Below, piece by piece: positions 5,097 through 64,000 of a stretch of DNA of 64,000 nt; positions within the stretch are counted from its first letter, which is position 1; each line of letters opens with the position of its first letter. The notes beneath the pieces were generated by a model, which had not been told where the DNA came from, did no database searches, and saw nothing but the letters and a program-made list of their open reading frames with translations. The translations under genes and the position numbers were made by a program. Origin of the DNA: an uncultured bacterium (lineage in GTDB: Bacteria > Krumholzibacteriota > Krumholzibacteriia > LZORAL124-64-63). The stretch is taken from positions 192,001 to 256,000 of the forward strand of contig CAVSGO010000005.1 of the NCBI GenBank assembly GCA_963727525.1, written 5' to 3'.

Positions 5097-5855
5097 ATGC
5101 TCGGCGTCCACGATCTCCGCCTCGACTACGCCGGCGACCGCGGCCGCGTGACCGCGTTCACCGGCGTCGATCTGCAGCTCGAGGCGGGCCGAACCCTGGC
5201 GGTGCTCGGCCCCACGGGGTGTGGCAAATCGTCGCTGCTGCTGGCGCTCGCCGGACTCCACCGCCCCTCGCAAGGCCGCGTCGTGTTCCAGGACCAGCCG
5301 CTCCTGCGCCCCCACCCACGCATCGCCCTCGTGTTGCAGGACTACGGGCTCTTCCCCTGGAAGACGGTACGGGACAACGTGGCGCTGGGCCTGCGCATTC
5401 GCGGTCTCTCCGACCTGCCCGCCGTCTTTCGCCTCGTGGGCGACCTGGGGCTCAGCGACAAGCTCGACGCGTACCCCCGTGAGCTGTCCGGCGGTCAGAA
5501 GCAGCGCACCGCGCTGGCGCGGGCACTCGTGCTCGATCCCGAGCTGCTCCTGCTCGACGAACCGTTTGCCGCCCTCGACACGCTCACTCGCGAGCGCCTG
5601 CAGGATCTGCTGGCCGACGTCTGGCGCCTGCGCCGGTTCGCTTTCGTACTGGTAACCCACGACATCGCGGAGGCCGTGTGTCTGGGGCAACGCATCGCCA
5701 TCATGAGTGCCGCGCCGGGCCGCGTGGTCGCGACGGTCACCAATCCGCTCGCACTGATGGATGCCCCGCGCCGGCATGCCGATTTCGCGTCGATGGTCGG
5801 CGACGTGCGCGCCGTGCTCGAACGCGAGGCAGCCTTCCAGGGAGGCGCCGCGTGA
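5097..5855 (+). CDS. ABC transporter ATP-binding protein (NitT/TauT family)
   Basis: Walker A GPTGCGKS, LSGGQ signature, LLLLDEPF Walker B, VTHD. Confidence 0.95.
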   Translation: MLGVHDLRLDYAGDRGRVTAFTGVDLQLEAGRTLAVLGPTGCGKSSLLLALAGLHRPSQGRVVFQDQPLLRPHPRIALVLQDYGLFPWKTVRDNVALGLRIRGLSDLPAVFRLVGDLGLSDKLDAYPRELSGGQKQRTALARALVLDPELLLLDEPFAALDTLTRERLQDLLADVWRLRRFAFVLVTHDIAEAVCLGQRIAIMSAAPGRVVATVTNPLALMDAPRRHADFASMVGDVRAVLEREAAFQGGAA

Positions 5856-6592
5856 CCCGCACCGGAGCGTATACCGCCGCGCTGGCCAGCGTTGTGATCG
5901 TGTGGCAGATCCTGGCGATGCTGGCCGGACCGGCCGTGGTGGCCCCGCCGGCCGCCGTGGTCGCGCTGCTGGTGCGCGAGCTGGGCACCGCGCTCTACTG
6001 GCAGCACGTGACGGCCTCGACCCTGCGCATCCTCGCCGCGCTGGGTATCGCCTTCGTGACCGCCGTCCCGTTGGGACTGGCGCTGGGTTCGAGCCGGCGT
6101 CTCGACCGCTGGTCGCGGCCGCTGATCTACCTCAGCTATCCGGTGCCCAAGATCGTGCTCTTGCCTCTCGTCTTTCTCGTGTTCGGCATCGGCGACGGCG
6201 GCAAGATCGCCATGCTGGCCTTGATCCTCTTCTTCCAGCTCCTGGTCTCCACCCGCGACGCGGCCGTGGCCGTGAGCCGCGAGCACAAGTACGCGCTGTA
6301 CAGCCTCGGCGGCGGGCGGCGCCACCTCTTCATGCATGTGATCTGGCCGGCGTGCCTGCCGGCGGTGTTCACCTCGCTGCGCATCGCCACCGGCACGGTA
6401 GTGGCGGTGCTGTTCTTCGTGGAATCGCTCGGCACCCGCCGCGGACTCGGCTACTACATCATCGACGCGTGGGGCCGCGCAGCCACCGCGCAGATCTTCG
6501 TCGGCATCCTCACCCTCGCCGCGCTCGGCGTGGTCCTCTACGAGATCTGCGATGGTCTCGAGCGGACGTTCTGCCGCTGGCAGCGCGGTTGA
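5852..6592 (+). CDS. ABC transporter permease (NitT/TauT family)
   Basis: Multi-TM, 'YPVPKIVLLP', EAA-like loop; GTG start overlaps ATPase stop (GTGA). Confidence 0.9.
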   Translation: MTRTGAYTAALASVVIVWQILAMLAGPAVVAPPAAVVALLVRELGTALYWQHVTASTLRILAALGIAFVTAVPLGLALGSSRRLDRWSRPLIYLSYPVPKIVLLPLVFLVFGIGDGGKIAMLALILFFQLLVSTRDAAVAVSREHKYALYSLGGGRRHLFMHVIWPACLPAVFTSLRIATGTVVAVLFFVESLGTRRGLGYYIIDAWGRAATAQIFVGILTLAALGVVLYEICDGLERTFCRWQRG

Positions 6593-6615
6593 ACCGCCAG
6601 CAAGGAGACGTGCGC

Positions 6616-7809
6616 ATGCGCCTGGTCGCGAGTCTGATCCTGTTCCTCATCCTGTCCGCCGCCGCCTCCGCGCAGGTGGAGCGCGCCGAGATGACCACCC
6701 TGTGGCAAGACACCCACGAGATCCTCACCGCCGAGAACGGCAATCTGCCCCCCGACACCGACGTGGGCGCCGGATACTACCTCGGCCGCCTGCGTCTACA
6801 GGACTCGCGCGGCTTCCCGATGTACGAGCTTCGCTACGCCTACACCGACAATGGCGCCGGCGTCGACCTGCGCGACCTGCGGCTCGCCGCCGAACAGCCC
6901 CTCCCCCTGGCCGGCTGGACGGCCAAGGGCCTCTACGTGGAGCAGAATCCCGCGAGCAGCGACCCCTCACACTACACCGCGCTGTACCTCGACGGCGCCG
7001 TGCAGGGGGTCATGTTCTCCGCCGGCATCGATCACGCAAGCTTGCCAGCCACGTCCCTGAGCGTCGGCTCGTTGCGCGCGAAGTACCGCACCGGACCCGT
7101 GACGTTGCTCGCCGGGGGATCCAACGAGACCGACGAGAAGGCGCGCTGGCTGGGGGGCGGCCTCGTGGAGCTGCCGGGCCAGGTCATGGTAGGCGGCATG
7201 TTCGGCCACTGGGCCGAGGACGACGGCTTCGCCGTGAACGTGGGCCGGTACAACCGCTTCGGCGACTTCGCCGGCATGCCCTCATTCTCGCTCAATTACA
7301 TCGAGGTGCCCACGCTCTACAAGTGGACCAACTTCCGCGTGATGTGGGGCGACCGCGGCATCCACTACGTGCCGCCCACCTTCAGCAGCACGACGTTCAC
7401 CGGGCAGTACGACATCAACATGGGACTGCTGCTACACGAACTGGTGCCGGACAACTACCGCCACTTCGACGCACCGCTGCTCTTCAAGCGCTACGACGAG
7501 TACGGTCGCGTGGCACTGCGCGTGAACTTCCTGGAGACCCCGACGAGCTTCCGCAAGCTCGACGTGAGCCTGAGCACGAACCTCGCCGTGCACGCCGGCC
7601 CTCTTACCTCGGTGCGCGGCATCCTGAGCCTCGAGCGCCTGCACAACCCGGCCTTCGGCTGGCAGGACGACCGCTTCCACCTCACCGGCGCCATGACGAT
7701 CCGCCATGGCCTCTACGCGGGCGTGACCTGGAGCACGGACTTCGGCGACTACAGCCGGACCATGGTCGAGCTGCGCACCGAGTTGCCGCTGCCGTTCTCC
7801 GGTTCCTGA
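6616..7809 (+). CDS. secreted hypothetical protein, probable outer-membrane beta-barrel
   Basis: Signal peptide (..SAAASAQ), alternating aromatic/polar strand pattern; AAGGAG RBS; last gene of the ABC operon. Confidence 0.6.
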   Translation: MRLVASLILFLILSAAASAQVERAEMTTLWQDTHEILTAENGNLPPDTDVGAGYYLGRLRLQDSRGFPMYELRYAYTDNGAGVDLRDLRLAAEQPLPLAGWTAKGLYVEQNPASSDPSHYTALYLDGAVQGVMFSAGIDHASLPATSLSVGSLRAKYRTGPVTLLAGGSNETDEKARWLGGGLVELPGQVMVGGMFGHWAEDDGFAVNVGRYNRFGDFAGMPSFSLNYIEVPTLYKWTNFRVMWGDRGIHYVPPTFSSTTFTGQYDINMGLLLHELVPDNYRHFDAPLLFKRYDEYGRVALRVNFLETPTSFRKLDVSLSTNLAVHAGPLTSVRGILSLERLHNPAFGWQDDRFHLTGAMTIRHGLYAGVTWSTDFGDYSRTMVELRTELPLPFSGS

Positions 7810-7880: not shown

Positions 7881-8576
7881 TTACCGGTACAGGCTCTTCA
7901 CTCCGCCCCACGGCATCGGATCGGTCGCCACCACCGAGCCGCCAACCTTGACGTTGGCCAGGTACCAGCCCGGATAGGCCACGCTGCTATCCGCGCCGAG
8001 TTGGAAGCGCAGATCGACCGTCTGGCCCATGAAGTCGGCCAGGTCGAAGCAGCTCGTGATCAGGACCCAGTCGTCCAGGTCGTGGCCCGAGAAGCCCGGC
8101 TCCATGTCGACACAGTACGCGTAGAAGGACGTGCTGGTGCTGATCTCCGGCACCGTGTAGCCCTCCATCGGAGTCACCGGCGTCCCGTTGACCACGAGAT
8201 TGCAGCCATCGAAGTTCAGCTCGGTGTCGAAGTAATGAGTGACCTCGACGAGCTGCGTGGTCTGGTCGACGAGGAAGCTCGGCGAGACGAGTGCCTCACC
8301 CGCATTGTTGGGGTAGTTCCCTGCAAGCACGGTACCCCAGCAGTTGCCGAAGTGCGACTCCGCGCCCCACTCCCAGACAGCCTCGCCACCATCCGGATCG
8401 CAGGTGGCGGTGGTGAAGCCCTGATCGCTGGCCGAGAAATCCCAGTCATAGGTCGTGGCCTCGAGCGGGCACGCAATGCGATAGGACGGCAGGTTCACTG
8501 GACCGTCGTACGGCTTGTCGGCGATCGCCGCGGTGGCAAGCGACAAGATACACACCATCAGAATCAAGTTACGCAT
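7881..8576 (-). CDS. secreted beta-sandwich protein with C-terminal WGGVKSLYR tag
   Basis: Signal peptide MRNLILMVCILSLATAAIA; 'DLADFMGQTVDLRFQLGADSSVAYPGWYLANV' resembles jelly-roll domains of secreted peptidases; GGAGG RBS. Confidence 0.75.
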   Translation of the reverse strand: MRNLILMVCILSLATAAIADKPYDGPVNLPSYRIACPLEATTYDWDFSASDQGFTTATCDPDGGEAVWEWGAESHFGNCWGTVLAGNYPNNAGEALVSPSFLVDQTTQLVEVTHYFDTELNFDGCNLVVNGTPVTPMEGYTVPEISTSTSFYAYCVDMEPGFSGHDLDDWVLITSCFDLADFMGQTVDLRFQLGADSSVAYPGWYLANVKVGGSVVATDPMPWGGVKSLYR

Positions 8577-9109
8577 GTTGGCCTCCCAAATCTTGGATTG
8601 GTCGATCATCTCGGTTTGGTCGAGCGGTGGCACGACCCGTCGCGCTAGCCATTGCCTCGCCACGCGAGGCAGCAGACCACACTGCGAACCTGAGAATAGC
8701 ACAAGACTGGAGCCGGGAGTGGAAAATATCTCATCCCTGGGATGAAATTTTCCCACGATGTCCTCGTCCTCGCGGCGGCTCGAATCCGACCTCACACCAG
8801 CATTAAAGAAAAACTTAAATGCGCGAACGCCTGGCGGGCGGCGAGGTTCCCGGCCCTGCCGGCGGCCGTGATTCTTTTGGGACAATCGAAAATTTTCCTG
8901 GCCGACAAGGGCTCGTTCATGCTGTATTCTATGATGCGACCGTGAGGATCGAGGCGGACCGGGCGTCAACCGCCGCGTCGCTCGTTGATTCTAGGTCAGT
9001 GGTCCGACGCGGCGTCGGATCGGTATCGAGCCCGAGGGCATTCCCGGATGAGGCCGGCGGTCCAGGGGGTTCGCGATCGCCGGTGAAACCGGCACTTGGA
9101 GCGTTCGAC

Positions 9110-9460
9110 GTGAAGAAGATCTATGTGGGAAACCTGCCTTTCAGCGCGACCGAGGACGAAATCACCGAACTGTTCGGCGCACATGGCACCGTGCACTCGG
9201 TGGCCCTGATCAATGATCGGGACACTGGCCGTCCGCGTGGCTTCGGCTTCGTGGAGATGGATGACAACGAAGCGATGGCTGCCATCCAGGCTCTCGACGG
9301 CAAGGAGCTGGGTGGCCGTGCCCTGCGTGTGAACGAGGCCCAGGATCGCCCGCGCGGCGGCGGCGGCGGCGGCGGTGGCCGTGGCGGCATGGGCGGCGGC
9401 GGCGGCCGGGGCCGTGGCGGTTATGGTGGCGGCGGTGGCGGTGGCGGCCGCGGCTGGTAA
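9110..9460 (+). CDS. RRM RNA-binding protein with Gly/RGG-rich tail
   Basis: RNP2 KIYVGNL and RNP1 RGFGFVEM; GTG start 8 nt after GGAG. Confidence 0.95.
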   Translation: MKKIYVGNLPFSATEDEITELFGAHGTVHSVALINDRDTGRPRGFGFVEMDDNEAMAAIQALDGKELGGRALRVNEAQDRPRGGGGGGGGRGGMGGGGGRGRGGYGGGGGGGGRGW

Positions 9461-20782: not shown

Positions 20783-23700
20783 ATGACGAGAAGGGTCTTC
20801 CATCACATCAGTTCTGGCTTGCTGGCGATCCTGGCCGCGTTGAGCCTGGCGCAGACGGCCCTCGCCGACGTGGCGCCGAGTGTCGAGATCCGCCTGGCGT
20901 CGCCCTTCGTGGCGGTGAAGGCCGGCGAGGTCTACGACGGCCGTTACGAGATCGTCTGCGCCGAGGACGGCACGCTCGCCGACTTCGCGCTCGCCGGTGC
21001 GAGCTGGTCGGCCAGCCTCACCGACGCGCCGCGTTCGCGCGACGTGCGTGCCGGCGATCGTTTCGTCGTGCCTTTCACGGCCACGCCCATGGACCCCACG
21101 CAGAAACTCGAGTTCACCTGCTCCTTCAACGGTTACACGGTGCACTACGCGATCGACCTGTCCGAGCGCAACGTGCACGACATGACCGAGGGCGCGCCTA
21201 CAGCGCCGGTTCCCGCGTTTCTGGACGGACGCGGCGACCCCTCGTACCGCGACGAGGACCTCGTCCTTGGCGGTCCGGGTCCCGAGCCGCCGCGCGACAG
21301 CCGGCGCACCGTCACCGTCACCGGGCGTTTCGGCTGCACGCTCGACGACGGTACCTACCTGCCGGGTCACTCCGTCCTCGTGCAGGTATACGACGAGGAC
21401 TCACTCGTCGACGACCTCCTGGTCTCCGGCTACACCAACTACGATGGCTACTACACGCTCGCCTTCAACAGCGACGACGCCGGCTGGCTCGACGAGCCCG
21501 ACGTCTATGTGCGCTTCACCACGAGCAACGGACGGATGCGCGTGTACGAACCGTCCAGCGGCGACAACTACGCCTTCGTCACCGGCGTCACGAACGACTA
21601 CACCGGCACCTACCTCGACTACGGTTCGCTTCAGCCCGCGAATCCCGACCTGCATCCTTGCGTCTTCCTGCACACGCAGGGCTCCCGCGGCTGGGTACAC
21701 GACAACAACCTCGGCTACGACGTGCCGGCGGCGCGCGTGGAATGGCCATCGGCCGCCTGGCCGAATACCAGCGGCGACGGGCGCATCCAGATTCGCAGCG
21801 ACTTCAGCTGGAACGATGGCACGCTCTGGCACGAGTACGGCCACTGGTTCGACCACGAGATGGCGAGCTGGGAGCCGTTCAACTACTGCAACGGCGTCTG
21901 CGACAACCCGCCCGACTGCGGCCACTGCTTCTGGTGCCAGGAGAGTCAGGCCATCGCCTGGCTCGAGGGCTGGGCGCAGTTCCACTCCTGGGCCGTCGGC
22001 TCCTGGTACCCCGGCTACTATGGGCGCTCGCCCCTGAGCGCCGTGAATGCCGAGAACCTCGGCACGTGCAGCGGCACCTATGGCGACCCCACCCTCACCG
22101 AGGGCTTCATCGCCGCCCTCACGCAGGACATCGCCGACAACGCGCAGGACAGCCATGGCGTGTACGGCACCTACACCGACCGGCTGGCCGTGGGAGTCGA
22201 CGACGTGTTCAACCTCAACGCCCTCGACAACCCGACCGGCTCGATGGACTTCATCAGCAAGTACATCGCGCGCTACGTGAGCCAGCGCGAGCTGTTCTGG
22301 GAGACGGCCGCGAACTGCGGCTACGACCTCGACGCCACCGCGCCCGGTCTGGTCGCCAACCTGCACTCCACCGACCACACAGCGGGCCTCGAGTCGCCCG
22401 ACCCCACGGTGAGCATGGCCTGGACGCGCGCGTCGGACAATCTGTCCGGCATCGCCGGCTACGGCCTGTTCGTCGCAGTGGGCGGACCGGGCCTGCCCTC
22501 GGCGGTGCAGGACATCGGCGACGTGACCAGCTACACCACCGATCCCCTGCCGCCGGGCACCTACTATTTCTGCATCCGCAGCGTTGACAACGCCGGCAAC
22601 TGGAGCGCCAGCTACGCGAGCTGGGGGCCGATCGTGATCCGCGAGCCGGATCCGGCCGATCTCATTCCGTACCTGCCCACGGGCTGGGATTACCCTCTGG
22701 TGCCGCGCGACGCCAACGACGCCACCATCAGCTCGGCTGAGGTCTCCGCCACGCTACCGGGAGGCGCCGCGAGCACCTACTGGAACATCTTCGGCCAGAA
22801 CCAGGGCGAGGCATCCACGGGCGTGGGCTTCTATGCCTGGCTGAACGTCGATGGCGAGAACGAGGCCAGCGTGTACTGGAACGCGGTGGGGGCGGGCGGC
22901 CTCTACTACGGTCCGAACCGCGGCCCGCTGACCGTACAAGCCGGCCGCCACTCGTTCACCTGTCGTCACGACGCCACGGACGTGGTGGCGGAGATCGACG
23001 AGACCAACAATGTCTTCGGCCGGCAGTTCATCTGGACGACGCCGACCATCTCCCCCGGCGCGCTGGTAACCCGCCCGGCGCCACCGGCCACCAACGGTGG
23101 CTGGAGCGACGTCACCTCGGGGTCCCTGTACTACAACTGCGACGGCGTCAGCGTCTCCACCACGACCGGCTGGTGGCACGCCGTGGCGGTGTGGGCCGAT
23201 TCGGACAGCGACGACTTCGACTGCCGTCTGCACACCACCTCCACCGGCGCCGAGACCGGCTTCGGCGCCAGCCTCGGCTACAGCACCAACGTCTACGGCC
23301 AGCTCGACGGCGTGATCGCCAACCGCAACCAGGTGAGCGACACGAGCTGGGACGTCGGCGTACTGCGCTGGAGCGGCGAGGGCACCTACAAGGCCTATCA
23401 CGCCTACAGCCAGATCCTCACCTTCGGCGATTCGGTCACCGTCGCGATGCCAACGAACGTGCCGATCCTGCTGCGGGAGTTCTTTGTGAGCACGGACGTC
23501 ATCGGCCCCGTGAGCGTGACCGCGCAGTGCGATCCCGCCGACGGTCCGATGCGGCTCGCCCTGCTGAACAGCACGTTCACGACGGGAAGCTTGACGTCCG
23601 GCGACCAGCTCGGTACCCAGTGGACCGACGGCGACGGCTTCGCTCGCGTGTCCAGCGACATCGCCACCACCGGCTGGTACGGCATCGTCGTCTACCGTGA

Positions 23701-25150
23701 CCAGGCAGGCGGTCTGCCGGCGACGAACGTGACCATCGAGGTCTCCACCACGCCGCCGGATCTGGCGCCGTGGACGCCGAGCGGCTGGTACGCGGGCCTC
23801 GTGCCTCGATCGGCACTCGACGGGACATCCACCTCCTGCCCGCTGCCCGACACGCTGTACTCCACGCCGCAGTACTCGTATCTCAACGTGGCAGCCACGA
23901 ACCTCGGGCCCGTGCCGTCGACCCTGCCGACGCACCTCTACCGCGACGATGCCTACCTCGGCTACGTCAGCTGGGGCGAGTTACCCGCAGGAGGCCAGGT
24001 GTCCTACAACTGGAACCATCAGTTCGCCTTCTCGCCGGGACGGCACATCCTCGCCCTGCGCGTGGACGGCGGCAACGAGATCGAGGAGACGAACGAGACC
24101 AACAATATCCGCGGCGAGCACTGGATCTGGAGTCCCTACGCCATGACGCCGCCCGCGACGGCGGCGCGTCCGGCTCCGCCGGAGCGCACGGCGGGCTGGG
24201 ACGACGTGACGATACCTGAAAGCCTCTACTACAACTGCGACGGTCTACGCCTCGCGGGGACCGGGGTGGGTTACTGGAAGAGCGTCGCCATCCTGCCGGC
24301 CGCAGGGTCAGACTTCGACCTGCGCCTGCATACGAAGGGAACCGGCACGAAGGATGGCTTTAGCGGTGCACTCGCGGGATCGTTCTTGGCCGGCACGGTC
24401 ACCGAGTACATGCTCGTGGACTACAACTCCACCGCGTTTGCCGACTACGATGTCGGCGTGCTGCGCTGGAGTGGTTCCGGCACCTACAAGGCGCAAACAT
24501 CCGCGTCGCAGTACCTCGGCGACGCACCCGTGGGCACCTGGGGTCCCTACACCATCGCGAGTGGCGGACTGACGCAGCTCATCGAGTTCCGGTTCCCGGT
24601 CGACGCCTACCAGATCACGGTCGACAACCTGTCGGGCGCCGACCTGGCGATCGCGATGCACAAGTCCGGCGTCGTGTACCAGAACCGGCTGGACGCGTTC
24701 GCCGAAGCCACGGATGCGGTGGCCGGAGCCGACCAGTCCATGACCGTCTCCGTCTCGGAGCAGGCCTACTACTGCCTCGTGATCTACCGACAGGATCAGG
24801 GCGGCGGTGCGGCCTCGTTCAACCTCACGATCTCGTCGGGCCTCACACCCGTCGAGGACGGCCTGCCCGCGCTGGCGAACCGCCTGGCCGGCGCCTCGCC
24901 CAATCCGTTCAACCCCCGCACGACCCTTGCGTACGAGGTCGCCAGGAGCACGCACGTGTCGCTGGCGATCTACGACCTGAACGGACGGCGGGTGCGCACG
25001 CTCGTCGACCGGCCACTGGCGGCCGGTCGCTATGAGGCGACCTGGGACGGCACGGACGACCGGGGCGGCCGCCTGGCTTCCGGCATGTACGTGGCGCAGT
25101 ACCGCGCGAGCGGCCAGGTGCAGACACGCAAGCTGACCCTGGTCAAGTGA
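20783..25150 (+). CDS. large secreted zinc metallopeptidase-like protein with duplicated CARDB-like modules and FlgD-Ig C-terminal domain
   Basis: HEYGH plus downstream 'WLEGWA' Glu; FN3-like segment; two 'E.DETNN' CARDB-like motifs; 'PNPFNP...KLTLVK'. Confidence 0.8.
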   Translation: MTRRVFHHISSGLLAILAALSLAQTALADVAPSVEIRLASPFVAVKAGEVYDGRYEIVCAEDGTLADFALAGASWSASLTDAPRSRDVRAGDRFVVPFTATPMDPTQKLEFTCSFNGYTVHYAIDLSERNVHDMTEGAPTAPVPAFLDGRGDPSYRDEDLVLGGPGPEPPRDSRRTVTVTGRFGCTLDDGTYLPGHSVLVQVYDEDSLVDDLLVSGYTNYDGYYTLAFNSDDAGWLDEPDVYVRFTTSNGRMRVYEPSSGDNYAFVTGVTNDYTGTYLDYGSLQPANPDLHPCVFLHTQGSRGWVHDNNLGYDVPAARVEWPSAAWPNTSGDGRIQIRSDFSWNDGTLWHEYGHWFDHEMASWEPFNYCNGVCDNPPDCGHCFWCQESQAIAWLEGWAQFHSWAVGSWYPGYYGRSPLSAVNAENLGTCSGTYGDPTLTEGFIAALTQDIADNAQDSHGVYGTYTDRLAVGVDDVFNLNALDNPTGSMDFISKYIARYVSQRELFWETAANCGYDLDATAPGLVANLHSTDHTAGLESPDPTVSMAWTRASDNLSGIAGYGLFVAVGGPGLPSAVQDIGDVTSYTTDPLPPGTYYFCIRSVDNAGNWSASYASWGPIVIREPDPADLIPYLPTGWDYPLVPRDANDATISSAEVSATLPGGAASTYWNIFGQNQGEASTGVGFYAWLNVDGENEASVYWNAVGAGGLYYGPNRGPLTVQAGRHSFTCRHDATDVVAEIDETNNVFGRQFIWTTPTISPGALVTRPAPPATNGGWSDVTSGSLYYNCDGVSVSTTTGWWHAVAVWADSDSDDFDCRLHTTSTGAETGFGASLGYSTNVYGQLDGVIANRNQVSDTSWDVGVLRWSGEGTYKAYHAYSQILTFGDSVTVAMPTNVPILLREFFVSTDVIGPVSVTAQCDPADGPMRLALLNSTFTTGSLTSGDQLGTQWTDGDGFARVSSDIATTGWYGIVVYRDQAGGLPATNVTIEVSTTPPDLAPWTPSGWYAGLVPRSALDGTSTSCPLPDTLYSTPQYSYLNVAATNLGPVPSTLPTHLYRDDAYLGYVSWGELPAGGQVSYNWNHQFAFSPGRHILALRVDGGNEIEETNETNNIRGEHWIWSPYAMTPPATAARPAPPERTAGWDDVTIPESLYYNCDGLRLAGTGVGYWKSVAILPAAGSDFDLRLHTKGTGTKDGFSGALAGSFLAGTVTEYMLVDYNSTAFADYDVGVLRWSGSGTYKAQTSASQYLGDAPVGTWGPYTIASGGLTQLIEFRFPVDAYQITVDNLSGADLAIAMHKSGVVYQNRLDAFAEATDAVAGADQSMTVSVSEQAYYCLVIYRQDQGGGAASFNLTISSGLTPVEDGLPALANRLAGASPNPFNPRTTLAYEVARSTHVSLAIYDLNGRRVRTLVDRPLAAGRYEATWDGTDDRGGRLASGMYVAQYRASGQVQTRKLTLVK

Positions 25151-25300: not shown

Positions 25301-25615
25301 TTACCAGCGACCGCCGCGGCTGCCGCCACCGCCGCCACCGCCGCCATAACCGCCGCCGCCGCCGCCGCTACGCGGACGGCTCTCGGCCTCGTTCACACGA
25401 AGCGCGCGGCCACCCAGTTCCTTGCCGTCGAGGGCCTGGATCATGGCCTGTGCCGCGTTGTCGTCCACTTCCACGAAGCCGAAGCCGCGCGGACGACCGG
25501 TCTCGCGGTCGTTGATCAAAGCGACCGAATGAACGGTGCCGTGCTGACCGAAGAGCTGAGTAATCTCGTCATCGGTCGCGCTGAAAGGCAGGTTACCCAC
25601 GTACAACTTCTTCAA
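25301..25615 (-). CDS. RRM RNA-binding protein (paralogue of 9110..9460)
   Basis: KLYVGNL / RGFGFVEV; TTG start chosen because it lies 8 nt after GGAG, exactly as in the paralogue. Confidence 0.93.
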   Translation of the reverse strand: MKKLYVGNLPFSATDDEITQLFGQHGTVHSVALINDRETGRPRGFGFVEVDDNAAQAMIQALDGKELGGRALRVNEAESRPRSGGGGGGYGGGGGGGGSRGGRW

Positions 25616-26055
25616 AGCATTCACTCCAACCGCCGGTTCTCCGGCTTGACCAAGCGCTCAGGATCGCCAGTGTCTTCTGGCGCATCCGGCTGCGCTTCCA
25701 CCTCCCCGACGACCTAGTCGATCGCGGGGTGCCAATCCCCAACAGATCGGCTACGTTAAACGGACCGGCAACTCAACGCCACCGCTCGTTTGGCCATCCC
25801 CAGCAAACGCCAGGGATGGCCCCTAATAGCCGATTTCAAGAGCGTGAGCGGGATTTCCAGAGCTTTGGCACGCCGCGCGAACCCGCCGGCCGCGCCTGTC
25901 GACCGGTATCGACGTTCCGGGGCGCAATGGGGAACGGCCCATGTGCCACCACCTTGATACCCGCCGCGTACGACGTCAGGTGTTGGAAGTCTCCGTCAAT
26001 ATCTACGCGAACACCGCGACCCGCCAGAGGCGGTGATGAAGCCGATGAATCGCCG

Positions 26056-27216
26056 TTACCGATACATCGATTTCAGGTCGCCGAAGGTCCGCGACTCAGT
26101 CGCCACGTTCGGCTGCACGGAGATCGTGAGGGCGACCTCCGTCGTGCAGGGCGGGTCATAGTCGTCGGTCGCCGCGAAATGGATCACATGGTCGCCGACC
26201 TCGTTGATGTCCGGCGTGAATGTCATGCCCACGGTCGACGGATTACCATCGGTGCTCACGAAGTCGAAGTTCGCGAGCCCGCCGGTATCAACCTCGGTAT
26301 GGACCGTCTGCCCGGCTTCGGGCCCGATGAATCCCACCGTGAGATTCAGCGATGGATGTGTCTCGTCCAGCACCACGGTGTTATTTGCGGGGAAGTTGAT
26401 GGCTACCGGGCACTGATTGACGTCGCCGCTGACGTTGAAACAGATCTCCTGGTCGTCGAGCCAATCGACACCGCTGATGCCATCGGGCCCCGCGTAGTCG
26501 GCGCCGGAATGATCGAAGCGGCCGACGTTGAAATAGTTCACGCCGTCGCCCTTGTTCACCCCGGTGGTCGCGGCGGAGCCACCGAAACCGCCACTGCCAC
26601 CGGAGGCGTCGCCCGTTGTCCACTGCATGTCGCCGTAGCAGAAGCAGACGTTGTTGCCGGCGCCGATGCCGTCGAACGTACCGTCGCTGATGATGAGCTG
26701 GAACGTCGACTGCAGGTCCGTGTGCTGGGAGTAGTAGCCGACGTGATCCCAGGTGACCGCCAGGTAGTGCGGATCCATCTTCATCCACACGACGCCAGCG
26801 CCGTTATCGAGCGCGCGTGTATCGACGTCGCCCCAGAAGGCCGCAACCATCGGGTAGTCCGCGACGGGGAATCCCTCTGGCGTATAGGTCGAGTAGGGTC
26901 CGCCGAACGAGACGTTGCCATTGTTGTTGATCCATAGCTGAGTCTGCGGCGTGCCGAAGAGATCGAAGGTGAACGGGAGCGTCACCATATCACTCGAACC
27001 ATCGTCGTTCTCGTAACAATCGGCCTGAGCGTTCGTGAAAGGAACGACCTGCCAGGTCGAGTCCAGCGGCAAGCAGAGCCCGGGACTGCCCTGCTGATTG
27101 CAGGGATACTGCGAGGGAACGGACACCGTGGGGCGATCTCCGGGTTTCCCGGCCAGCGCCGGTACCGACACCGCGAGGATCAACCCGACCAGCAACACGA
27201 CATAGCGGGGTCGCAT
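26056..27216 (-). CDS. secreted nidogen(NIDO)-like domain protein with C-terminal FGDLKSMYR tag
   Basis: 'NDDGSS..LPF.F..FG...WINNNGNVSF', 'AAFWGDVDTR', 'TFQLII', 'CYGDMQWTTG' match NIDO pattern; signal peptide. Confidence 0.82.
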   Translation of the reverse strand: MRPRYVVLLVGLILAVSVPALAGKPGDRPTVSVPSQYPCNQQGSPGLCLPLDSTWQVVPFTNAQADCYENDDGSSDMVTLPFTFDLFGTPQTQLWINNNGNVSFGGPYSTYTPEGFPVADYPMVAAFWGDVDTRALDNGAGVVWMKMDPHYLAVTWDHVGYYSQHTDLQSTFQLIISDGTFDGIGAGNNVCFCYGDMQWTTGDASGGSGGFGGSAATTGVNKGDGVNYFNVGRFDHSGADYAGPDGISGVDWLDDQEICFNVSGDVNQCPVAINFPANNTVVLDETHPSLNLTVGFIGPEAGQTVHTEVDTGGLANFDFVSTDGNPSTVGMTFTPDINEVGDHVIHFAATDDYDPPCTTEVALTISVQPNVATESRTFGDLKSMYR

Positions 27217-58368: not shown

Positions 58369-58740
58369 ATGCGTCACCTGTTGCACCTGATCGTCTCCAT
58401 CCTCATGTGGGTCCTCTTCGGATACTACTGGTACATCGTCATGGGACGTGAAGTCGGCCCCGGCACCACGCGGGCCATCGTGATCCTGGGCATGCTGGTT
58501 CTCGTGGGCCTGGTGACGACGGCGCTCTGGATCGAGCACAATCTGCTCCTCGCGCGCAGGCTCGAGGGACGCCGGCAGGGAGTGCGCGGAGCGCCTGAGC
58601 CGAACATCGAATGGGATGCCATCGGGCGGCCGATTACGCATCCCGGATTGCCGTTGCTGCGTGCGGCGACGATCGTCGACATCACGGCGGACCCCGAGAG
58701 CAAGACCTTCACGGTCGGAGCTGCGAAGGAACCGTCGTGA
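58369..58740 (+). CDS. small two-TM membrane protein, putative PgaD/IcaD analogue
   Basis: Two TM helices then 'WIEHNL....RR' resembling PgaD W..YN..R; GTGA overlap with pgaC. Confidence 0.6.
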   Translation: MRHLLHLIVSILMWVLFGYYWYIVMGREVGPGTTRAIVILGMLVLVGLVTTALWIEHNLLLARRLEGRRQGVRGAPEPNIEWDAIGRPITHPGLPLLRAATIVDITADPESKTFTVGAAKEPS

Positions 58741-60005
58741 ACCTGTACGACCTGGTCGTCTCGTTCGAGCAGACGTGGGTGTACGGCGCGCTACTCGTGT
58801 ACTTCGCCTGGTATCCCATGGCCACCAGCGCCATGTGGATCTACACGGCGATCATCTACTTCCGCCGGCGCGAGCACCGGGACGAGGACTCCGCGGCTTC
58901 ATTCTACCGTCTCGATCGCACACCGCGCGTGAGCTTCCTCATTCCCGCCTTCAACGAGGAAGACAACATCGCTGAGACCGTGGCGGGTGTGCTCGCCGTC
59001 GACTACCCCGATTTCGAGGTCGTCGTCATCGACGATTGCTCCACCGACGGCACCCTGGCTCGCCTGCAACCCCTCGCCGACGCCGGCCGCATCCGCCTGA
59101 TCCGCAAGCGCGTGAACGAGGGCAAGGCCATGGCGCTGAACGACGCCTTGCCGCTGTGCACCGGCGAATTGCTCATGGTGATGGATGCCGACGCGATTCC
59201 CGATCCGGGCATCCTCAAGGCCATGGTCCCCCACTTCCGCTCGCCCCGCGTGGGTGCGGTGACGGGCAATCCGCGGGTGGTGAATCGCGACAGTTTCCTC
59301 GCCAAGCTGCAGGCCATCGAGTTCGCCAGCATCATCTCACTGATGCGGCGCGCGCAGCGCGTATGGGGCCGCATCATGACCATGTCCGGCGTGGTGGGGA
59401 TCTTCCGCCGCGAGGCATTGCAGGATGTCGGCTATTACAGCCCGGAGATGGCCACGGAGGACATCGACATCACCTGGCGCCTGCAGATCCGCCACTGGGA
59501 CGTGCGCTACGAATCGCAGGCGGTGATGTGGATGCGCGTGCCGCAGTCGTTGAAGGGGCTGTGGCGGCAGCGGCGCCGCTGGGCGCTCGGGCTGAGCCAG
59601 GTGATGCATCGTCACTGGCGCACCGTGCTACACTGGGAGCACCGCCGGTTCTGGCCCGTGATCGTGGAAGCCAGCCTCTCGGTGGCCTGGGCCTACACTT
59701 ACGTCTTCCTGAGCCTCGTCTGGATCATCAGTTACGCGCTTGGGTATCCGCCGGTGGGCGCGAGCCCCATCCCCAATTTCTGGGGCATGCTCATCGCCAC
59801 GGTGTGCGTGTTGCAGCTCATCACAGGGGTGATGCTCGACCGCAACTACGACCGCACCCTGCCGCGATACTTCGTGCACGCGGTGTTCTACCCGCTCATC
59901 TACTGGATCCTGATGGCCGTGATCACGGTCGTGACACATCCACGCGGCGCCAACGTGAACCGACAGAAGCGGCGCTACACGCTCTGGAAGCCGGTGAGGG
60001 AATGA
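58737..60005 (+). CDS. pgaC: poly-beta-1,6-N-acetylglucosamine synthase (GT2)
   Basis: IPAFNEE, DDCSTD, GKA.ALN, MDAD, VGAVTGNPR..NR, TEDID, QRRRW, YP.IYW. Confidence 0.9.
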   Translation: MNLYDLVVSFEQTWVYGALLVYFAWYPMATSAMWIYTAIIYFRRREHRDEDSAASFYRLDRTPRVSFLIPAFNEEDNIAETVAGVLAVDYPDFEVVVIDDCSTDGTLARLQPLADAGRIRLIRKRVNEGKAMALNDALPLCTGELLMVMDADAIPDPGILKAMVPHFRSPRVGAVTGNPRVVNRDSFLAKLQAIEFASIISLMRRAQRVWGRIMTMSGVVGIFRREALQDVGYYSPEMATEDIDITWRLQIRHWDVRYESQAVMWMRVPQSLKGLWRQRRRWALGLSQVMHRHWRTVLHWEHRRFWPVIVEASLSVAWAYTYVFLSLVWIISYALGYPPVGASPIPNFWGMLIATVCVLQLITGVMLDRNYDRTLPRYFVHAVFYPLIYWILMAVITVVTHPRGANVNRQKRRYTLWKPVRE

Positions 60006-61480
60006 CCGTGCGCCTCCGCCTCGTCATGGCCTGGCTTGCCCTGGCCGCGCCCAGTCTGGCCGAGATGGCCGCGGCGCAGACCGCGTCGGTCCCGGACACC
60101 GCGATGTTCGGGGTGCACGTCATCAATACGCCCGCCGCCTGGCGCGAGATCGACGCCGCCCGCGAGGCGGCGGGACACGACGCACACGCAGCATCCGCGG
60201 CTGCCTTCATCCGGGGCCTGAATCACGATGCACGCCTCGTCGGCGAGGTCTGCGACGAGCTGGCCTTCCAGAAGCTGTGGCTCGAGCAGCACGACCGCGC
60301 CATCTTCTACTTCCGTCGCTACCTGGCACGGCATCCGGGCGAGGTGAATCGGGACGCGCGCAAAGGGCTCGCGCTCGCCTATAGCTGGAGCGGCCGCCAG
60401 GGCCTGGCCATCGACATGTATCGCCGTCTCGTCGAGGAGGATCCCGGCGATCTCGACGCGCGCCTCGGGTTCGGACGCTCGCTCATCTGGGGCAATCACC
60501 TGCACGAGGGGTTCCACGTGCTGCGAGGCCTCGAGATCGAGCATCCCGACGACGACCATGGCGCCGGCGATTTCTTGCTGACGACCCTCGACTCCTACGA
60601 ACCGCACGTCGACATCCGCTGGGATGGCATCCGGGACAGCGACGACCTCACGATCCACCGTTACACGGTCCGGGGGCGCGCCAACGTCGGCGAGGCCCTG
60701 CCCGAAGTGGGCGCGGGGGTGGCCTTCATCGCACAGTCGGAAGAACCCGACGTCACCGCGCCCCGATTCCAGGCTGGTCTCGTCGCTCCGCTCGCGCACA
60801 CGGTCACGCTGCACGCCTACGGCTGGGTCGATCACCTGACGAGCGACGGCGCCCTGCCGACGACCGGTGAGTCGCTCGACTGGACGCGCCTCGGCGGCGA
60901 CGGCTGGCTCACGTGGCAGCCGCTTGCCCGCCTGCGCCTCGATCTGGGCGCGAGCAGCCAGGTCGTGGAGACCTACGTCGCCTTCGGCGAGCACCTCCAC
61001 TACGAGCCGCTGAGCCTGTCGGCCGACTGGCGTTTCGCGCGCCAATGGACGCTGTCCGGCGCCGGCCAGTATGCGAGCTACAGCGACGACAACACCCGTC
61101 GTCGCGGCTCGCTGCAGCTCTGGTGGAAGCATACCGGCGCCTGGGACCTCGCCGTGGGGCCAGGCATCTATGTCATGGACTACACTCACCCCTATCCGGG
61201 CGGTTACTGGGCGCCCGAAGGGGTGCGCAACGCCACGATGGCGGCGAAGATCGCCCACCACTGGGCACGTCTCGCCATTGCCGTGGACGGAAGCTACGGC
61301 GTGGAGAAGGAAACAGATGCCGACGCCATCGCGGTGGGCGGCATCCACGGCCACGTGGGCTGGCGCTTCGTCCCCGGCTGGTTGCTCGGTCTCGACGCCG
61401 CGCACTCCCGCAGCCGCTTCACCAGCGACAGCGGCTATCACCGCACCACGGGCACGGTCGCCATCCGGGCGCTCTTCTGA
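60002..61480 (+). CDS. TPR + beta-barrel outer-membrane export protein (PgaA-like)
   Basis: Signal peptide, TPR-like 'ARKGLALAYSWSG...A...YRRL', barrel-like C-half with 'GYWAP', C-terminal Phe. Confidence 0.7.
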   Translation: MTVRLRLVMAWLALAAPSLAEMAAAQTASVPDTAMFGVHVINTPAAWREIDAAREAAGHDAHAASAAAFIRGLNHDARLVGEVCDELAFQKLWLEQHDRAIFYFRRYLARHPGEVNRDARKGLALAYSWSGRQGLAIDMYRRLVEEDPGDLDARLGFGRSLIWGNHLHEGFHVLRGLEIEHPDDDHGAGDFLLTTLDSYEPHVDIRWDGIRDSDDLTIHRYTVRGRANVGEALPEVGAGVAFIAQSEEPDVTAPRFQAGLVAPLAHTVTLHAYGWVDHLTSDGALPTTGESLDWTRLGGDGWLTWQPLARLRLDLGASSQVVETYVAFGEHLHYEPLSLSADWRFARQWTLSGAGQYASYSDDNTRRRGSLQLWWKHTGAWDLAVGPGIYVMDYTHPYPGGYWAPEGVRNATMAAKIAHHWARLAIAVDGSYGVEKETDADAIAVGGIHGHVGWRFVPGWLLGLDAAHSRSRFTSDSGYHRTTGTVAIRALF

Positions 61481-61481
61481 C

Positions 61482-62525
61482 ATGGGCACTTCGCGTCGAC
61501 GCCGCTTCGCGATCGCGATCACCATGGTGGTCGCCATCGCTTCGCTCGGCCTCGTACTGCGCAGCCGTACCCTCCACCAGCCCGCCGAGCACAGCGCGAG
61601 CTACCACCTCGACCCCACCGACCTGGCCACCTCGGCGAGCGCCGACATCGGGCCGGGCGTGCGTATCCTCTGCTACCACTACTTCCGCCGCGATTTCGAT
61701 CCGATCTACCTCGTGCGCGTGTTCGCGGCCGTGGTGCTCGGCATGCCGGCGCTCGGCCCCCAGGAGTTCTGGACAATGCCGATCAGCCAGTTCGAGCGGC
61801 ACCTGCGCTATTTCCGCGACGAGCACATCCCTGTACTCACGCTGGGCGATATCGCCGCGTACCAGGCGCGCGGCGAAGCGCTGCCCGACCCGGCAGTGGT
61901 CATCACGATCGACGATGCCGACCGCAGCGTGTACCGACTCGCCTGGCCCCTCCTGAAGCGCTACGGCATGCGGGCGCATCTCTTCGTGCCCACCAGCGAG
62001 GTGGGCCTGCACTGGAGCGGCATCGATGTCTGCACGTGGGCGGAGCTGCGCGAGATGGGCGACTCCGGCGTCCTCATCGTCGGCTCGCACACGCACGATC
62101 TGCACTACAAGGTCGCGACGGACGCCGGGCGCCAGCCGGTATTCTGGAATCCGCAGACGATCAGCACGGCGCAGCGCACGGAGGAGCTGGCCGAACTGCG
62201 TGCGATCGGCACCGCGCCGGACCATTCCGATGCCAACGCCGCAGCCCCGCCGTCCGATCCCATCGCGGCCGATCTGCTTCTGAGCCGGCGTCTCGTGGAA
62301 CGCCACATCGGCAAGAGCTGCCTCTGGCTCGCCTGGCCCTACGGCTTCGGGAGCGGACGCCTCGACAGCCTCGCCGCACGCGTCGGCTTCCACGGCACCC
62401 TGAGTCTGCGTCCGCGCTCGGTCGAGGACGATTCCCCGCCCTGGCATCTGGGCCGGTTCACGCTGACGGCCAAGACCACCCCCCAGGAAGTAGCCGCGTT
62501 CTTCGTCGATTCTGCGCCGTTCTAG
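61482..62525 (+). CDS. polysaccharide deacetylase (CE4, PgaB/IcaB-like)
   Basis: ILCYH, ITIDDA, TWAELREM, GSHTHDLH, AWPYG; N-terminal TM anchor. Confidence 0.88.
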   Translation: MGTSRRRRFAIAITMVVAIASLGLVLRSRTLHQPAEHSASYHLDPTDLATSASADIGPGVRILCYHYFRRDFDPIYLVRVFAAVVLGMPALGPQEFWTMPISQFERHLRYFRDEHIPVLTLGDIAAYQARGEALPDPAVVITIDDADRSVYRLAWPLLKRYGMRAHLFVPTSEVGLHWSGIDVCTWAELREMGDSGVLIVGSHTHDLHYKVATDAGRQPVFWNPQTISTAQRTEELAELRAIGTAPDHSDANAAAPPSDPIAADLLLSRRLVERHIGKSCLWLAWPYGFGSGRLDSLAARVGFHGTLSLRPRSVEDDSPPWHLGRFTLTAKTTPQEVAAFFVDSAPF

Positions 62526-62581: not shown

Positions 62582-63148
62582 CTACTGGAAGAGCGCCTTC
62601 ACGTCGCTCCAGCTCTGGCTGGTCGCTCCCACCGACTGGTCGTTCAGACGCGCCACGACGGGCGTTCCGAACGAGTAGCTGCAAGGTTGCAGATCGCCAC
62701 CGCCGAAGTCCACCACCGGGAACCCATCCGGGAGACTCGAGGGATCCGAGGGGCCAAAGGTGATCTCCTCGTAGCTCGTGCTCTCGGTGTAGAAGATCGC
62801 GTTCGAGAGGACAGTCCCGGTGGGACTCACTGGAACCGGCGTGAGGAAGTGTACGATCTGGTTGGTGTTCGTGCCGGTATTCTCGCCCCAGCCCATCGAC
62901 GTGACATACACCTGGAAATCCGCCGCCGTGCAGGCGATGGAGACCTCGTAACCGGCCACCTCACTTCCCATCGCGTTCGTCAGGACGACGTACCCGATCC
63001 GGGCGTAGCCGGGAACAATGGTAGTCGCCGCGGTCTCGTAGTTGAACTCGGTGTCGCTGAAGTAGAATCCCATGACGTTGTCGTCGGCCAGCGCCGCACC
63101 CGCCACGAACGTGAACACCACCGCAAGGCTCATGAACGTGTTGCGCAT
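62582..63148 (-). CDS. secreted beta-sandwich protein with C-terminal SWSDVKALFQ tag
   Basis: Signal peptide ..AGAALA; GAGGAGG RBS; domain similar to 55754..56569. Confidence 0.8.
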   Translation of the reverse strand: MRNTFMSLAVVFTFVAGAALADDNVMGFYFSDTEFNYETAATTIVPGYARIGYVVLTNAMGSEVAGYEVSIACTAADFQVYVTSMGWGENTGTNTNQIVHFLTPVPVSPTGTVLSNAIFYTESTSYEEITFGPSDPSSLPDGFPVVDFGGGDLQPCSYSFGTPVVARLNDQSVGATSQSWSDVKALFQ

Positions 63149-63245: not shown

Positions 63246-64000
63246 TTACGAGCGAGAACCGACGAGCGTGCGGTATTGCCTCGCCACGCGCAGCAGCAAG
63301 GTGCCGACCACGGAGCGGCGCTGGAACTGGCGCCGCATCTCCGGCACGGCGCCGAACCGGCGCTTGAAATCCCAGAGGCTCCGCCGCCCCACGCTGCCCC
63401 CGAAGTCGACGGCCGTGAGCCCGCGCGCGCAGGCTGCCATGATGTCGAGCCAGTAGAGGAGCACCGCCGGAAACACGCCGGACTCCGTCCCTCCGCGCAC
63501 GCCGCCTTGCCAGGAGATCAGGCGTCCGCGCGACACGAAGCCGAAGTGACCGCCCAGCAGCTCGCCATCGCGGCTCACGGTGCCGAAGACCACGTCATCG
63601 GGGGCTTCTCGCATGAGATCCTGCATGAATGCCAGCGGCACGGGCGCCTGCGCGAAGCGTGCCGCGCGCTGGCGGTAAAGCTGGTACCACGGGGCCAGGC
63701 GGGCCGGATCGCGCTCTTCCCGGATAGTGCAGCCCAGCCGGAGCGAGCGATCGCGCTCGCGCCGCCGGATCCCGGCGAGATTACGCTCGGTCGCGTCCAA
63801 TCCGCCCGCGCAGGGGACGATCGCCGTACGCGTCTCGATCGCCAGCCAGGGCGGCCCCGGCGTGACCAGGGCATGACGCGCGGCGGCGTCGGCCGAGAGC
63901 GTGAACGCGGCCAGCATGCGGCAGCCGCCAACGTGATCTCCTAGCCCGCTCACGAGCGACCGGAACACGGCCGCCTGAACCTCCGGCGGAAGATCCGCCG
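63246..64000 (-). CDS. GNAT/FemAB-like acyltransferase (5' partial)
   Basis: 'LLYW.DI..AC.RGL..VDFGGS....LWDFKRRFGA' pattern; runs off window end. Confidence 0.75.
   Translation of the reverse strand, partial: ADLPPEVQAAVFRSLVSGLGDHVGGCRMLAAFTLSADAAARHALVTPGPPWLAIETRTAIVPCAGGLDATERNLAGIRRRERDRSLRLGCTIREERDPARLAPWYQLYRQRAARFAQAPVPLAFMQDLMREAPDDVVFGTVSRDGELLGGHFGFVSRGRLISWQGGVRGGTESGVFPAVLLYWLDIMAACARGLTAVDFGGSVGRRSLWDFKRRFGAVPEMRRQFQRRSVVGTLLLRVARQYRTLVGSRS

Follow-up and report, generated by a model that had tools for sequence, protein, structure and literature searches.

Three genes in a 64,000-nt stretch of DNA from a Krumholzibacteriota genome (G000:C5:192001-256000, hereafter the window) encode exported proteins whose bodies differ but whose C-termini end in one shared tail of approximately 17 residues, and the same tail was identified at the ends of 88 open reading frames (ORFs) across that genome (G000; 4,664,706 bases in 8 contigs, ~67% G+C). 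This tail is in all likelihood a real, previously undescribed C-terminal sorting-type tag. [quoted passage not shown] The tag would be built from a linker, V-A-T-E-P-x-[ST], followed by a predicted helix, W-[GS]-x-[VI]-K-[SA]-L-[FY]-[RQ]. Its bearers are Sec-exported and mostly small, single-domain proteins of the binding or adhesion type, in which it occupies the position that a T9SS domain of ~85 residues holds in their paralogues.

A shared tail on unrelated exported proteins

The sequence-only reading of the window had pointed to three minus-strand ORFs with a common C-terminal motif, all of which are confirmed by their translations. Tagged gene 1 (7881-8576, minus strand) encodes an exported protein of 231 amino acids (aa) with an InhA-like MAM-type body and the C-terminal end VVATDPMPWGGVKSLYR; its tag, i.e. 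the last 17 codons, spans 7884-7934 and is followed by the stop codon at 7881-7883. The body, scanned against Pfam and NCBIfam as a translation without the first 8 residues, matched Pfam PF20773 (InhA-like MAM domain) with 27.0 bits against a cut-off of 26.9. Tagged gene 2 (26056-27216, minus strand) encodes an exported NIDO-domain protein of 386 aa (Pfam NIDO match, 85.5 bits) ending in NVATESRTFGDLKSMYR, with its tag at 26059-26109, and tagged gene 3 (62582-63148, minus strand) encodes an exported protein of 188 aa ending in SVGATSQSWSDVKALFQ, with its tag at 62585-62635 and with no family match in Pfam or NCBIfam. The claim that the three bodies are different is thus borne out, as is that of a Sec-type signal peptide on each, which the translated N-termini display as MRNLILMVCILSLATAAIA (gene 1), MRPRYVVLLVGLILAVSVPALAG (gene 2) and MRNTFMSLAVVFTFVAGAALA (gene 3). 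The tag profile scores of genes 1 and 3 were 29.7 and 26.3, respectively, and a search of the window with the 20-residue profile returned genes 1-3 as its only tagged ORFs. A relaxed form of the motif terminates 57 of the 120 best homologues of the gene 2 NIDO protein; some homologues terminate in ...KTKYRK(R), while Planctomycetota-labelled homologues carry other C-terminal domains instead of the tag.

When the pattern [WF][GS].[VLIM]K[SAT][LMIV][YF][RQK] was run over all 40,231 ORFs (stop to stop, minimum length 60 aa) of G000, 50 matches were obtained, 44 of them exactly at the stop, 4 ending 1-4 residues before it and 2 internal, compared to 0.017 matches anywhere expected from residue composition. 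A profile of the last 20 residues identified 88 ORFs with a match ending at most 5 residues from the stop (~2% of the proteome, i.e. 88 of ~3,600 genes), with the consensus V-[AP]-[TV]-E-[PAS]-x-[ST]-W-[GS]-x-[VI]-K-[SA]-L-[FY]-[RQ]. The W, the G/S, the K, the upstream V..E..[ST] and the distance to the stop are all tightly conserved, and the Lys is invariant; the terminal residue is most often R (44 tags), followed by Q (12), E (11), D (7) and N (6). Synonymous codon differences were observed among the matched DNA strings, indicating that the protein is conserved and not a DNA repeat. Such codon differences, together with the excess of matches over expectation, refute the explanation that the tail arises by chance, as an annotation artefact or from a repeated DNA element, for which nothing was found to count and whose probability is negligible. 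Furthermore, a 24-base degenerate pattern corresponding to W-G-x-[VIM]-K-[SAT]-x-[FY] gave up to 45 matches per genome, as opposed to 0-1 for the reversed-pattern control, and a stricter pattern including the stop codon matched at least 126 loci in public genomes, where each of the 126 listed matches closes an open frame.

A signal-peptide heuristic applied to all genes was positive for 73 of the 88 tagged proteins (82 with a laxer heuristic), 177/201 proteins with a T9SS-type domain and 1001/3302 others, which agrees with the original claim that the motif is confined to the C-termini of signal-peptide proteins. The claim of unrelated bodies likewise holds across the genome, as the 88 tagged bodies fall into 56 BLAST groups, of which 50 are singletons. 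Tagged proteins have a median length of 258 aa, versus 760 aa for T9SS-domain proteins. Pfam matches were obtained for 18 of 40 tagged representatives (22 being without match) and all represent binding or adhesion-type modules, namely Beta_helix, CHRD, Cohesin, DUF642, PPC, Calx-beta, DUF4397, CBM_4_9, cupredoxin, LTD (twice), Temptin_C and Spondin_N. The tail itself contains no hydrophobic span and, at 17 residues versus ~85 for the 201 T9SS-type C-terminal domains of G000, is indeed much shorter than such a domain and free of a transmembrane helix, as the sequence-only reading had stated. The existing-model check that it had proposed gave no Pfam or NCBIfam match to the tail among the 43 tagged proteins that were scanned, and no description of the motif was found in the open literature at abstract level, subscription journals lying outside the scope. 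An encapsulin cargo peptide, a BAM beta-signal and a PDZ ligand were also considered and set aside on account of the signal peptides, the mismatched hydrophobic spacing and the hydrophilic last residue. One tagged beta-helix gene is present in two identical copies (C7:5925-7094 and C8:263359-264528) which, together with large neighbours, are located at contig ends and look like a repeat that broke the assembly.

AlphaFold modelling of the gene 2 NIDO protein (48 aligned sequences, mean pLDDT 87.3) yielded a beta-strand that closes the body, a 10-residue linker and then a helix over residues 379-386 of the 387-residue translation, with tail pLDDT blocks of ~75-84. A second, unrelated tagged protein (G000 C7:1686414-1687055) was modelled as a beta-sandwich plus terminal helix with a pLDDT of ~55-58, and in the two models the terminal helix comprises the last 8-11 residues. 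Our helical-wheel reading of the consensus groups W, V/I, L and F/Y together on a single face that K and R adjoin, and the mean helical hydrophobic moment of the tag, 1.25, lies between the median (0.81) and the 90th percentile (1.48) of the background. A helix of this kind, following a flexible linker, might constitute a self-sufficient in-plane anchor, i.e. a short cationic amphipathic helix that rests on a membrane leaflet or on lipopolysaccharide and requires no dedicated enzyme, similar in type to the C-terminal membrane-targeting helices of MinD and PBP5, and being enzyme-free it would fit those tag-bearing genomes in which the PorU-like paralogue is missing (see below). However, the moment stays below the 90th percentile of the background, nine residues bind weakly, the conservation of the W, G/S, K, V..E..[ST] and stop distance is tighter than amphipathicity alone demands, and the bodies are extracellular-type modules with paralogues among T9SS cargo. 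We therefore consider a self-sufficient anchor unlikely, albeit worthy of serious consideration.

Interchange with the T9SS-type C-terminal domain

An in-genome profile of the T9SS-type C-terminal domain identified 201 proteins, none of which is tagged (and, conversely, 0/88 tagged proteins bear the domain), while 23 of the 88 tagged proteins have a body homologue within G000 that is terminated by the T9SS domain. Pairwise alignments revealed that tag and domain begin at the same junction, as observed for C7:1621314-1622549 versus C3:154010-155521, and a same-junction replacement was also found for three proteins of ~200 aa versus C5:455477-456454. Among NCBIfam models, the tagged bodies matched NF038123 (95.4 bits, cut-off 40) and NF038127 (29.4 bits, cut-off 29), which we take to be families with varying C-terminal anchors, and reached 116.8 bits with choice_anch_C, just below its cut-off of 120. 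The tag is therefore located at the C-termini of signal-peptide proteins, on unrelated bodies and interchangeably with another anchor on homologous bodies, these being features by which Haft's operational criterion defines a sorting signal. A further feature in that definition is a dedicated processing enzyme that co-occurs with its substrates and is encoded next to them, on which the observations given below differ between phyla. The earlier view of the tail as a secretion or surface-anchoring tag thus stands as regards its sorting-type behaviour, with secretion or anchoring as its putative function. Additionally, a T9SS-domain gene is the immediate neighbour of 23/88 tagged genes, 43/201 T9SS-domain genes and 309/3302 others, i.e. 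tagged genes adjoin T9SS cargo about as often as cargo genes adjoin one another.

The tail and the T9SS domain also resemble each other at their extreme ends, with L at position -3 in 52/88 tags and 151/201 domains, a hydrophobic residue at -2, and a basic residue at -1 in 45/88 tags (R44, K1; our count) and 187/201 domains. This resemblance raises the possibility of a minimal T9SS export signal that the SprA translocon or a PorV-like barrel would read and PorU proper would remove, with the PorU-like paralogue serving its cohesin-like neighbours only. The presence of six PorV-like barrels in G000 and of PorU proper in every tag-bearing genome tested is in keeping with such a signal, as are the tag-bearing Latescibacterota that possess PorU proper only. 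Known T9SS signals are, however, folded beta-sandwich domains according to PMC4804311, the tail is recognised by no T9SS model, tags are missing from T9SS-bearing Zixibacteria and KSB1 genomes, and no PorV-like gene is clearly linked to tagged genes, for which reasons a minimal export signal seems rather improbable.

The six PorV-like barrels (L167-L172) all score below the NCBIfam cut-off, and most of them directly follow a large protein with a T9SS-type tail (...KFVVVR, ...KTVAVVR, ...KFAIIK), an arrangement that suggests cargo-specific shuttle pairs of barrel and large cargo. As potential partners of the tag they were rejected, since they are mostly paired with large T9SS cargo and, with one located ~2 kb from a tagged gene, display no consistent link. 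An unbiased analysis of neighbour enrichment in G000 was similarly unproductive, returning T9SS cargo, kinases, transposases and regulators only.

Distribution of the tag and a PorU-like paralogue as candidate reader

The degenerate pattern is present in 20/21 relatives and in 194/201 genomes of the phylum, and even its pattern-poor genera contain 16-53 profile matches (E-value threshold 10, a loose setting that yields 97 in G000); with no tag-free relatives to compare, a differential-genomics approach inside the phylum proved unworkable. Titles among the listed public matches include Krumholzibacteria, Eisenbacteria, Latescibacteria, Gemmatimonadota, 'Fibrobacteraceae' and others, and five genomes selected from these matches contain 41-68 profile matches each. 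One of the five (G203) is the same genome, with identical coordinates, as G029 of the window's own phylum, so that record labels are unreliable guides to phylum and G203 does not represent an independent lineage. The tag was found in 12/12 genomes of a small phylum around G202, while it was absent from the Zixibacteria-labelled and the KSB1-labelled genome (one each, both T9SS-bearing). In two Latescibacterota genomes and one Gemmatimonadaceae genome, 5-12 weak matches each were obtained, and 8 inspected of the 23 weak matches listed are a C-terminal variant, TAVE-x-x-[ST]-W-G-R-I-K-[AS]... The variant, extended as ...-x-[LH]..., occurs on ORFs of ~300-350 aa (L338, L339 and L341 in G218; L336 and L337 in G221) and may be an ancestral, family-bound form of the tag. 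In a larger Latescibacterota sample the pattern was present in 16/51 genomes with 1-12 matches each, and 20/20 inspected matches are true C-terminal tags. The lineage specificity that had been suggested is consequently upheld, the tag occurring throughout Krumholzibacteriota, Eisenbacteria-labelled genomes and the small sister phylum, and in part of the Latescibacterota.

Two PorU-type C25 peptidases are encoded by G000. PorU proper (C7:789330-793451) matches NF033707 with 436 bits (cut-off 420) and is located directly upstream of a PorV gene. The second, the PorU-like paralogue (C7:1681884-1686260; 1458 aa), contains a Peptidase_C25 domain (PF01364, 157 bits versus a cut-off of 23) and a weak T9SS-type domain of its own at the C-terminus, and scores below the cut-offs of both the PorU model NF033707 (157.9 bits, cut-off 420) and the 'putative PorU2' model NF052324 (63.2 bits, cut-off 450). 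The columns of the catalytic His981 and Cys1023 are kept in 56/57 aligned PorU-type sequences. In a maximum-likelihood tree (a quick search with several long branches), 16 paralogues form one clade (SH-aLRT 100) apart from PorU proper (10 rows, SH-aLRT 99), while PorU2-like sequences of KSB1, Latescibacterota and Gemmatimonadaceae form a third group (5 rows, SH-aLRT 95). Public names for the paralogue are 'C25 family cysteine peptidase' or hypothetical only, and within the literature scope given above no PorU paralogue tied to a short tag was found. In line with the expectation that the machinery lies outside the window, no candidate for it was found there, and this sole candidate is encoded on another contig.

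The paralogue gene of G000 lies directly downstream of, and on the same strand as, two tagged genes. This C25 synteny surfaced in a comparison of neighbours between G000 and G203, in which 30/139 were shared overall, equal to the chance rate (763/3591). A search for related loci with the single paralogue protein gave no relatives, which were then found by profile and genome searches. One to five same-strand tagged ORFs end within 1.5 kb upstream of the paralogue at 39/44 assessable Krumholzibacteriota loci (i.e. those with at least 600 bases upstream) and at 41/49 overall, although the 49 loci are kin and not independent. The same order was observed in G205, with three tagged genes, as well as in G207 from the phylum of G202, i.e. 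another phylum than that of the window, where a tagged ORF ends 4 bases before the paralogue ORF; in the Eisenbacteria-labelled G239 the order is tag, SurA-like gene, paralogue. With a single query the paralogue was detected in 112/121 Krumholzibacteriota genomes, and 5/5 re-examined misses were positive by profile (462-802 bits); it was further detected in 57/61 genomes of the Eisenbacteria-labelled phylum, a tally that includes the unpublished genome G236, which is counted there only. Conversely, no paralogue-level match was obtained in five T9SS-bearing genomes with no tags or few weak variant tags, nor in 51 Latescibacterota genomes (best profile score at most 425 bits). As a yardstick, scores of 626 bits or more were reached by full-length orthologues that are not part of the profile, and matches of at most 425 bits were, where checked, PorU proper or PorU2-like. 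A paralogue-leaning homologue (438 versus 369 bits) is present in one tag-bearing Latescibacterota genome, G297.

The tagged neighbours of the paralogue adopt a predicted cohesin-like fold, their top Foldseek matches being cohesin modules (E ~1e-4, target-normalised TM-score ~0.6-0.66). An exported protein of 197-248 aa, terminating in D-x-N/D-x-D-G-x-[VI]-N-x-x-D, is always encoded ahead of these tagged cohesin-like genes (a 209-aa version at C7:1688707-1689336, minus strand, in G000, and counterparts in L174 and L362). A dockerin-like nature of this end was considered for the 209-aa protein and is our own reading only, Pfam giving no match there; it would suggest a cohesin-dockerin surface assembly near the paralogue.

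The tag-paralogue operon (C7:1676000-1692300 in G000, and L174) is located inside a conserved block whose genes serve cell-wall turnover and housekeeping, comprising M49 peptidase, GH3, SpoIID and YceG genes by Pfam, and RuvX-like and STAS/anti-sigma genes by our reading. Its position amid cell-wall turnover genes (MltG/YceG, SpoIID, GH3) is one of the observations that would fit a periplasmic handle, i.e. a degradation or quality-control tag that a tail-specific protease or a PDZ protease would read, or a tether to peptidoglycan that acts through the invariant Lys in the manner of Braun's lipoprotein. The fixed distance to a free C-terminus and the invariance of that Lys would be equally compatible with a handle, as would the homologues terminating in ...KTKYRK(R), an end which resembles the C-terminus of Lpp. 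Yet known PDZ and Tsp ligands do not share the hydrophilic, variable last residue of the tag (R, Q, E, D or N), and a degradation tag that is carried by ~2% of the proteome, occurs across phyla and can be swapped with a secretion domain is hard to rationalise; a periplasmic handle is therefore very improbable.

Returning to the T9SS-linked reading favoured here, the tagged proteins would first be exported by Sec, and T9SS-linked machinery would then recognise the tag at the cell envelope. The reader would be the dedicated PorU-like C25 cysteine peptidase paralogue, itself a putative T9SS-type cargo, and a cut in or near the linker would set the protein free or attach it to the cell surface, by analogy with the action of PorU on T9SS cargo domains. 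In its boldest form, which we hold to be possible but doubtful, this reading would make the tail the signal of a second, parallel type IX branch, in which the paralogue clade reads the short helix, cuts the V-A-T-E-P linker and fastens binding modules to the surface, including cohesin-like anchors for a dockerin-type assembly.

Several observations weigh against a T9SS-linked tag read by the paralogue. The cleavage, export and location of the tagged proteins are all inferred, and the tail helix is moderately amphipathic, with low to medium model confidence (pLDDT ~55-84). When the 3-5 kb upstream of the paralogue was inspected at 20 Eisenbacteria-labelled loci, a tagged ORF turned up at only 4 (at one of these, on the other strand) and was directly adjacent at none. 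In G201, two tagged genes lie ahead of a different, more divergent C25-like gene. As a single divergent cohesin-like family may account for all the tagged neighbours of the paralogue, the synteny may reflect one module rather than an enzyme-substrate relation. Of five re-examined tag-bearing Latescibacterota genomes, G284 and G286 have PorU proper only, and G282 and G310 add one ambiguous fragment each, implying that the tag can exist without a clear paralogue. Finally, tag and paralogue are near-universal in Krumholzibacteriota, which renders their co-occurrence there uninformative, and related genomes are not independent.

If the reading as a parallel type IX branch is true, the tail would be the first example of a short, linear signal that lacks a transmembrane helix and sorts proteins for display on the outer-membrane surface. 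What is new here is a PorU-like paralogue, catalytically intact by its conserved residues, that forms its own clade and is encoded beside tagged genes. The discovery of new envelope machinery has repeatedly started from a C-terminal sorting signal, as in the cases of sortase, exosortase, rhombosortase and T9SS. Because no database model covers a tag that marks ~2% of the proteome in whole uncultured phyla, the annotation of dozens of surface proteins per genome gives no hint of their destination; to our knowledge, there is no cultured member of these phyla. A short, portable tag and a candidate enzyme make the question amenable to in vitro testing, and possible uses include better prediction of surface proteomes from metagenomes and a compact display tag.

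Gene surroundings in the window and comparison with known systems

Between tagged genes 1 and 2, the window encodes an exported T9SS type A cargo protein of 1455 aa (20783-25150, plus strand), which matches TIGR04183 with 28.9 bits (cut-off 23) and, in Pfam, FlgD_ig (38.7 bits) and CARDB (48 bits). Its canonical T9SS C-terminal domain implies that the known alternative sorting signal is in use in the neighbourhood of the tagged genes. Tagged genes 1 and 2 are each directly adjoined by a gene for a small RRM-type RNA-binding protein with a Gly/Arg-rich tail (8819-9460, plus strand, and 25301-25624, minus strand, respectively; RRM_1, 74.6 and 73.5 bits), the two proteins being paralogues of each other. 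Convergent with gene 1, and located within the ORF 5761-7809, is a gene for an exported protein of ~340 aa (6783-7809, plus strand; start MRLVASLILFLILSAAASAQ) that has no Pfam family and whose sequence style suggests, by our reading, an outer-membrane protein. Directly upstream of gene 3, the region 58611-62525 (plus strand) encodes a family-2 glycosyltransferase (135 bits), an exported TPR-containing protein and a polysaccharide deacetylase (53 bits), presumably resembling a pga-type exopolysaccharide locus, and an Acetyltransf_6 (GNAT-type) gene follows gene 3 (63246-63968, minus strand).

The tag shares with the tripartite sorting signals and their sortases, i.e. LPXTG/sortase, PEP-CTERM/exosortase, GlyGly-CTERM/rhombosortase and MYXO-CTERM/myxosortase, as presented in bioRxiv 10.1101/2023.06.07.544157, its short C-terminal form on many unrelated exported proteins of one lineage, its 'choice-of-anchor' bodies and a putative processing enzyme encoded beside some substrates. 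It differs from them in having neither a transmembrane helix nor a basic tail past the motif, ending as it does 9 residues after the Trp; moreover, the tail has no match among the NCBIfam CTERM models, and the candidate enzyme belongs to the C25 peptidases of clan CD rather than being a sortase, exosortase or rhomboid. The C-terminal signal of outer-membrane beta-barrels requires a terminal aromatic residue, whereas the tags end in R, Q, E, D or N and the modelled bodies are soluble sandwiches. Short C-terminal peptides that form an amphipathic helix and direct localisation are exemplified by the secretin S-domain with its pilotin and by the helices of MinD and PBP5, each within a single protein family. 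In contrast, one tag is here distributed over 56 unrelated body groups in one genome, and no pilotin-like partner was identified. With regard to the cohesin-like tagged neighbours of the paralogue, a parallel exists in Gram-positive bacteria, where sortase attaches cohesin-bearing anchoring scaffoldins to the wall.

The paralogue resembles PorU (NF033707) and PorU2 (NF052324) in its N-terminal region, in a C25 domain with the His/Cys dyad and in a T9SS-type C-terminal domain of its own, and is distinguished from both by forming a separate clade that scores below the two curated cut-offs. As for the T9SS type A domain (TIGR04183/PF18962/PF13860, FlgD_ig-like; PorU, PorV), an Ig-like beta-sandwich of 80-90 residues, the tag differs from it in being 17 residues long, with a linker and an 8-11-residue helix in the models, in lacking a match to any T9SS family hidden Markov model in 43/43 scanned proteins (the neighbouring 1455-aa protein does match) and in being absent from some T9SS-bearing lineages. 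Nevertheless, both are located at the extreme C-terminus of Sec-exported proteins of FCB-group bacteria, the two swap at the same junction, their genes cluster and both end in an L-hydrophobic-basic sequence, while the candidate reader of the tag is itself a paralogue of PorU.

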